Shown one piece after another: positions 1 to 265 of a DNA stretch of 265 bases. The stretch's first letter is position 1. Each line of letters starts with the position of its first letter. Source of the stretch: Escherichia coli (GTDB lineage Bacteria; Pseudomonadota; Gammaproteobacteria; Enterobacterales; Enterobacteriaceae); NCBI RefSeq assembly GCF_003334255.1, contig NZ_QOWU01000274.1. One strand, written 5' to 3'. The notes under the pieces are model-generated. The model searched no databases, was not told where the DNA came from, and saw nothing but the letters and a program-made list of their open reading frames with translations. The position numbers and the translations under genes are program-made.

Positions 1-265
1 GAACTTCTTAACATGCTGGATATTAAAGGAAAAATCATCACAACTGATGCGATGGGTTGCCAGAAAGATATTGCAGAGAAGATACAAAAACAGGGAGGTG
101 ATTATTTATTCGCGGTAAAAGGAAACCAGGGGCGGCTAAATAAAGCCTTTGAGGAAAAATTTCCGCTGAAAGAATTAAATAATCCAGAGCATGACAGTTA
201 CGCAATGAGTGAAAAGAGTCACGGCAGAGAAGAAATCCGTCTTCATATTGTTTGCGATGTCCCTG
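1..265 (+). CDS. ISAs1-family DDE transposase (H-repeat-associated protein, ISEc1-like), internal fragment, partial at both ends
   Basis: Seen in sequence: frame 1 (codons at 1-3, 4-6, ...) is open across the entire window, 88 codons with no stop. The other two + frames are interrupted (TAA at 9-11 in frame 3; TAA at 116-118 in frame 2). All three - strand frames contain stops (for example, forward TTA at 106-108 is a TAA on the reverse strand). Translation: [88 protein letters not shown]. Established knowledge, recalled from memory and not verified by search: this matches the central portion of E. coli H-repeat-associated ISAs1-family transposases (YhhI/YdcC/YbfD/YbfL paralogs). The specific paralog cannot be assigned from 265 bp, so no gene symbol is given. 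True start and stop codons lie outside the window. Confidence 0.85.
1..265 (+). mobile_element. Internal portion of an ISAs1-family insertion sequence (H-rpt / ISEc1-like); element termini are not in the window
   Basis: Inference from the CDS identity: ISAs1-family elements are about 1.2-1.4 kb and carry a single transposase ORF filling most of the element. The window lies entirely inside that ORF, so no inverted repeats or target-site duplications can be seen. The 40% GC (106/265 by hand count) is consistent with a horizontally acquired element in a roughly 51% GC enterobacterial host. Confidence 0.75.

Follow-up and report, generated by a model that had tools for sequence, protein, structure and literature searches.

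Assignment of a 265-nucleotide stretch of Escherichia coli DNA to the interior of an ISAs1-family (H-repeat) transposase gene

The stretch of Escherichia coli DNA analysed here (the window, 265 nucleotides) is occupied over its entire length by one open reading frame. In the six-frame translation, frame +1 is the sole frame free of stop codons, and its bases 1-264 are translated to 88 amino acids. Each of the other five frames contains at least two stops. Frame +1 neither starts nor ends within these 265 nucleotides, which places the window in the interior of a gene. The identical sequence is found in E. coli O157:H7 PV15-279 (locus L001) at 6001-6265, inside a coding sequence of 1137 bp (5533-6669). 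The protein of this full copy has 378 residues, of which the window encodes 157-244; base 265 opens codon 245. The open reading frames listed for the other frames of the window are all short: one of 55 aa on the antisense strand, and two of 23 aa. The coordinates of the features are summarised in Table 1.

Table 1. Features assigned to the 265-nucleotide window and the evidence for each of them.
Feature	Position in the window	Strand	Evidence
ISAs1-family (H-repeat; ISEc1/ISEc5-type) transposase coding sequence, internal segment	1..265	+	Frame +1; profile and DNA matches
GAT codon for Asp172, putative second acidic residue of the DDE triad	46..48	+	Invariant in 11 aligned members; strand 168-171 (beta-4) in the model just precedes it
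AVKGNQ motif, residues 194-199	112..129	+	Alignment and model
Beta-strand insertion domain (predicted), start, residues 221-244	193..264	+	Model strands 221-229 and 232-242; invariant columns; fold match to Tn5 transposase
55-aa antisense open reading frame with TTG start, judged to be due to chance	38..205	-	Broken by a stop codon in L014 (94% identical), where numerous amino acids differ too

The 88-aa peptide matches the NCBIfam profile NF033564 (ISAs1 family transposase), a curated equivalog, with 99.7 bits (E 1.7e-28), where the cut-off of the profile is 70 bits. The match spans residues 1-86 of the peptide and positions 129-217 of 314 of the profile. In Pfam, the peptide hits DDE_Tnp_1 with E 2.3e-6, over model positions 68-139 of 200. 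The full 378-aa protein that contains the identical window passes the NF033564 cut-off with 412.2 bits (E 1.3e-123) and has the architecture of the ISAs1 type. The N-terminal DDE_Tnp_1-associated domain (PF13808) lies at residues 8-94 (E 2.4e-32), and it is followed by the catalytic DDE_Tnp_1 domain (PF01609) at residues 102-343 (E 3.1e-30), of which the window covers a part only. Thus far nothing contradicts an assignment to the ISAs1 family, and it is almost certain that the window belongs to the interior of the one gene that an ISAs1-family insertion sequence (H-repeat, ISEc1/ISEc5) carries, a gene which encodes a DDE transposase.

The preliminary description had placed the window inside a single open frame of an ISAs1-family (H-repeat) transposase gene, with high identity to be expected over the whole length. 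The frame, the NF033564 score, the annotation of identical genes and their setting at Rhs ends (below) agree with it, and the 265 bases are 100% identical throughout to ISAs1/ISEc1/ISEc5 transposase genes of thousands of E. coli genomes. The two Pfam domains that it had proposed for a check fared differently. DDE_Tnp_1 was recovered from the window; the associated N-terminal domain was not, since residues 8-94 are beyond the reach of a peptide that covers residues 157-244.

The pattern of substitutions indicates that frame +1 is under purifying selection. In the comparison with a copy 94% identical to the window (L014), 12 of the 16 differences fall on third codon positions, and the changed codons include 11 synonymous and 4 nonsynonymous ones. 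The forward frame is open throughout in all ten divergent family members that were compared (10/10). The substitutions relative to L014 and the open frame in the relatives together imply that frame +1 is not open by chance.

Four observations would speak for a second feature overlapping the transposase gene, whether a small protein encoded on the antisense strand or a structured RNA: the 55-aa antisense open reading frame, one promoter-like and one terminator-like site, and a weak Rfam match to SCARNA4 (22 bits). None of them withstands comparison. The antisense frame is stopped in the L014 copy. The counts of promoter-like and terminator-like sites are within the expectation from shuffled sequences (0.5 and 0.4, respectively), so that both sites are judged to occur at chance frequency. 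The SCARNA4 match, obtained in an Rfam scan of both strands with E up to 1, falls well short of the gathering score (60), and the family is eukaryotic; the match is put down to chance. Against shuffled controls, no unusual RNA folding was detected on either strand of the window: z is -1.56 for one strand and -1.24 for the other, and folding that was as good or better was seen in 18 and 24, respectively, of 200 shuffles. An overlapping feature is therefore effectively refuted, with next to no probability left to it.

The repeat search detected no tandem array in the window. One 10-nt direct repeat in two copies and one 12-nt inverted pair with 83% identity were found and judged to be due to chance, as short two-copy families need caution. 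The PADLOC profiles for defence systems gave no matches with either the window peptide or the full protein. A literature search for a newly described role of ISAs1/H-repeat elements returned routine mobilome and genome papers only. The suggestion in the preliminary description that no novel system is visible is thus in line with the scans for RNA families, folding, repeats, antisense frames and defence systems, all of which were negative. The gene in the window is that of an already known and very common insertion-sequence transposase, with nothing novel visible.

To characterize the catalytic part of the protein, the E. coli sequence was aligned with ten members of the ISAs1 family that show 27-51% identity to it. 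These relatives are from plasmids of Escherichia, Klebsiella, Vibrio, Methylobacter, Acaryochloris, Citrobacter, Aeromonas (ISAs1 itself) and Kitasatospora. D109, D172 and E306 are invariant among the 11 aligned members, which represent Proteobacteria, Cyanobacteria and Actinomycetes. According to the alignment and the predicted structure, these three residues constitute a conserved DDE triad at the positions expected for the RNase H-like fold. A catalytic role of D172 is likely by analogy with DDE enzymes of the Tn5 type. The residues invariant inside the window are G166, D172, A173, Q177, K196, N198, R232 and R236. Two of them, K196 and N198, belong to the AVKGNQ motif, where Q199 is nearly invariant; in the model, the motif is placed at the end of strand beta-5 and in the following loop. 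R232 (nt 226-228) and R236 (nt 238-240) are in the segment of the insertion domain that the window encodes.

The AlphaFold2 model built from the 11-member alignment is confident (mean pLDDT 84.7, pTM 0.83). The order of its secondary structure elements is RNase H-like: strands 105-113, 126-133 and 138-145, helix 148-161, strand 168-171, helix 177-186, and strand 190-194. After strand 190-194, a block of long beta-strands (221-286) precedes a long helix (292-316) that carries E306. In the model, the insertion domain breaks into the RNase H-like fold after beta-5 and before the E306 helix, as it does in Tn5 transposase. A Foldseek search of the model against PDB gave Tn5 transposase (4dm0, 3ecp and 1mm8) as the best matches, with E values of 2.5e-8 to 3.8e-7 and TM scores of 0.50-0.52. 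Other DDE enzymes rank after it with much weaker scores. In a sequence search of PDB with the full protein (L001:5533-6666), no related chain was found; the best matches were to CheY, at chance level (E above 1). Judged by this sequence search, no member of the ISAs1 family has a solved structure. The nearest fold is that of Tn5 transposase, which only the comparison of folds brought out.

Among known systems, the closest are ISEc1 and ISEc5 (H-repeat, H-rpt), whose K-12 paralogues are ydcC and yhhI. The DNA of the window is 100% identical to annotated copies of ISEc1/ISEc5, 99.6% identical to K-12 ydcC (one base), and 99.2% identical to a copy annotated as yhhI. The genomic location, at Rhs ends, is likewise shared, and within the window there is no difference from ISEc1/ISEc5. 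ISAs1 of Aeromonas, the family prototype, and ISKpn31, ISKpn9 and ISPa60 share the domain layout, a length of about 360-380 aa, the invariant D/D/E and an AVKGNQ-type motif. They differ from the E. coli protein in showing only 31-51% amino-acid identity to it and in being often plasmid-borne. Tn5 transposase (IS50, IS4 family) has in common with the E. coli protein the RNase H-like DDE core and a beta-strand insertion domain before the Glu helix, but it is only 9-12% identical in the structural alignment and its N-terminal domain is another one. The IS4 family profile NF033592 matches the full protein weakly, with 18.9 bits, below its cut-off of 115. Because this cut-off is not reached, the likeness to Tn5 is at the level of fold and does not extend to membership of the IS4 family. 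The E. coli ISAs1 protein thus resembles Tn5 transposase in fold, and probably in chemistry as well, without being an IS4-family member.

The boundaries of the element were determined in the L001 copy. It extends from 5389 to 6679 (1291 bp) and contains one open reading frame. The terminal inverted repeats, CAGGGAAAGATCACCTAACGCCGC and CAGGGCAAGATTACGAAAGCCCGC, begin with CAGGG and agree in 18 of 24 positions; none of 300 shuffles did as well. When three independent loci are compared in register, homology begins and ends sharply, exactly at the ends of the L001 element. ISAs1-family elements have, in general, a single open reading frame, a length of about 1.2-1.5 kb and short terminal inverted repeats, and the L001 element fits this description. 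No direct repeat that would represent a target-site duplication is present between the 20-bp flanks GGCGTACATCGCACAGAGGC and CCTGCTCACCTCCAGGCACT of the L001 copy, the single copy examined in this respect. Old insertions and rearranged Rhs ends often lose their target-site duplications. As such loss is common, the missing duplication at L001 does not exclude membership of the ISAs1 family.

The left end is different at the pptA locus (L003). The CAGGG end seen in L001 is absent there, and a copy of IS1 (4658-5412) is located at or inside the left terminal repeat of the ISEc5 element. The IS1 terminus adjoins the shared sequence near 5412.

The element is widespread in E. coli. When all complete E. 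coli assemblies (5426 genomes) were searched by megablast with the 265 bases, 5314 of them gave matches. There are 20871 matching places in total, with a median of 4 per genome and a range of 1-9, and the best match is at least 99% identical in 3617 records. The features under the matches are annotated as 'ISAs1 family transposase', 'ISAs1-like element ISEc1 family transposase' or 'ISEc5 family transposase'; the gene names ydcC or yhhI are attached to them in some genomes. Plasmids account for only 19 of these 20871 places, so that the element of E. coli is almost wholly chromosomal. ISAs1-family relatives in other genera, by contrast, often occur on plasmids (939 plasmid records).

Three different chromosomal loci, in three strains, carry the 265 bases without any difference: one near nfrB (L001), one near yafV (L002) and one near pptA (L003). 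Since the identical sequence occurs at three or more loci, the window is not assignable to one paralogous copy. This identity is compatible with either recent spread or gene conversion between copies. The parts of the element that flank the identical 265 bases differ at scattered positions among the three loci.

RHS core genes or RHS repeat-associated genes are located upstream of the ISAs1 gene at L001, L002, L003 and the K-12 locus L016, where the copies are identical or 99.6% identical to the window. The examined copies are mostly at the distal ends of Rhs loci, which is the classical arrangement of H-repeats; this location applies to the identical and 99.6% identical copies rather than to the window's own flanks. 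The L001 copy adjoins nfrB/nfrA, and upstream of it are an RHS core gene, a gene with a zincin-like toxin domain and a small open reading frame. The copies at L003 and in K-12 adjoin pptA in the RhsE region, with a second, decayed ISAs1 copy just upstream.

Two details of these neighbourhoods deserve description. At L001:3736-5318, directly upstream of the element, a 444-aa gene annotated with a 'zincin-like metallopeptidase toxin domain' is followed by a hypothetical open reading frame of 69 aa, and the RHS core gene upstream of the toxin gene is frameshifted. This segment looks like an orphan C-terminal toxin tip of Rhs together with a candidate immunity gene. The decayed copy in the RhsE region (L016:4303-5447 and L003:3625-4613) is frameshifted with an internal stop, and over 159 nt its identity to the window is only about 72%. 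Based on this low identity, it is a distinct, older sub-lineage placed in tandem with the intact copy.

Copies are also observed away from Rhs loci. An intact copy, 94% identical to the window, is found at L014:1033-2169, with a DUF1972 (glycosyltransferase-type) gene on one side and a gene of the LTA synthase family on the other. H-repeats are known from polysaccharide and O-antigen gene clusters, and the setting of L014 recalls these. In a strain without the full element, a 144-bp ISAs1 remnant (L015:1501-1662), about 90% identical to positions 9-171 of the window, is located near yddH/nhoA, beside a peptidase M35 gene and hypothetical open reading frames.

Truncated copies raise the question of whether the window comes from a pseudogene relic, that is, from a defective copy of the same element from which no functional protein is made. 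The copy next to yafV (L002) has lost its 5' part to an insertion of ISCro1, an IS66-family element, and is annotated as a pseudogene, yet its window is identical. Because of this 5'-truncated copy, the intactness of the source copy is not readable from the window alone. Other decayed copies are the frameshifted one at L016 4303-5447, the 144-bp remnant at L015, and the partial matches H54 and H55. On the other hand, most of the 100% identical matches among those listed are in intact coding sequences of 1137 bp, and the window itself contains no stop or frameshift. It is therefore rather unlikely that the window is from such a relic, and origin in an intact ISAs1-family transposase gene is preferred.

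The structure of the L002 locus is as follows. ISCro1, with tnpA, tnpB and the transposase gene, splits the ISAs1 copy (2826-5885). The 3' part of ISAs1, with the window-identical segment, is at 5782-6669, and the boundary of homology is near 5780. A short fragment annotated as 'transposase family protein' is present at 2826-3080.

According to one genome paper, H-repeat elements are listed in ISfinder, yet no transposition of them has been seen (PMC3032704). Together with the missing target-site duplication at L001, this leaves the present-day activity of the element unproven. It is conceivable that the H-repeat transposase has been domesticated in the service of Rhs loci, for example in the exchange of C-terminal toxin/immunity tips, and that its gene is not that of a selfish insertion sequence. 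The copies at distal Rhs ends beside orphan toxin tips, found at no fewer than three separate sites on the chromosome, the narrow copy number, the rarity of plasmid locations and the maintenance of the open reading frame under purifying selection would all be in accordance with domestication, as would the lack of observed transposition. However, the terminal inverted repeats of insertion-sequence type are retained, and related elements with ISfinder names are common on plasmids of many phyla. The 94% identical copy is outside Rhs loci, in a gene cluster of the polysaccharide type, and many copies are decayed or interrupted, as expected of a selfish element. The 265 bases themselves give no evidence either way. 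Domestication is thus very improbable, and an ordinary insertion sequence of the ISAs1 family is the favoured reading.

As the gene of such an insertion sequence, the full copy encodes two domains. The N-terminal DDE_Tnp_1-associated domain is presumed to bind DNA. The RNase H-like catalytic domain is, in the model, broken by the beta-strand insertion domain in the manner of Tn5 transposase. What the window encodes is the central part of the catalytic domain, from the end of helix alpha-1 through beta-4, D172, helix alpha-2 and beta-5 with its AVKGNQ motif to the initial two strands of the insertion domain. If the protein acts as Tn5/IS4-type enzymes do, D109, D172 and E306 would bind two divalent metal ions. 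These ions would cut the ends of the element and then join them to target DNA, and the ends acted on would be the 24-bp imperfect inverted repeats starting with CAGGG. The results above show the family membership, the layout of domains, the conserved triad, the fold, the boundaries of the element and the constraint on the coding frame; the two-metal chemistry of cleavage and strand transfer, and any activity of this particular copy, are inferred.

If the H-repeat gene were a domesticated recombinase shuffling the toxin/immunity tips of Rhs, the window would encode the catalytic centre of that activity. Residual interest lies in the ISAs1 family being without a solved structure, as judged by sequence search, and in the undemonstrated activity of Rhs-linked H-repeats. 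Both gaps have long been recognised and are not revealed by the window. The window is wholly explained by a well-annotated insertion-sequence transposase gene that is carried by about 98% of complete E. coli genomes; it can be set aside and matters very little.
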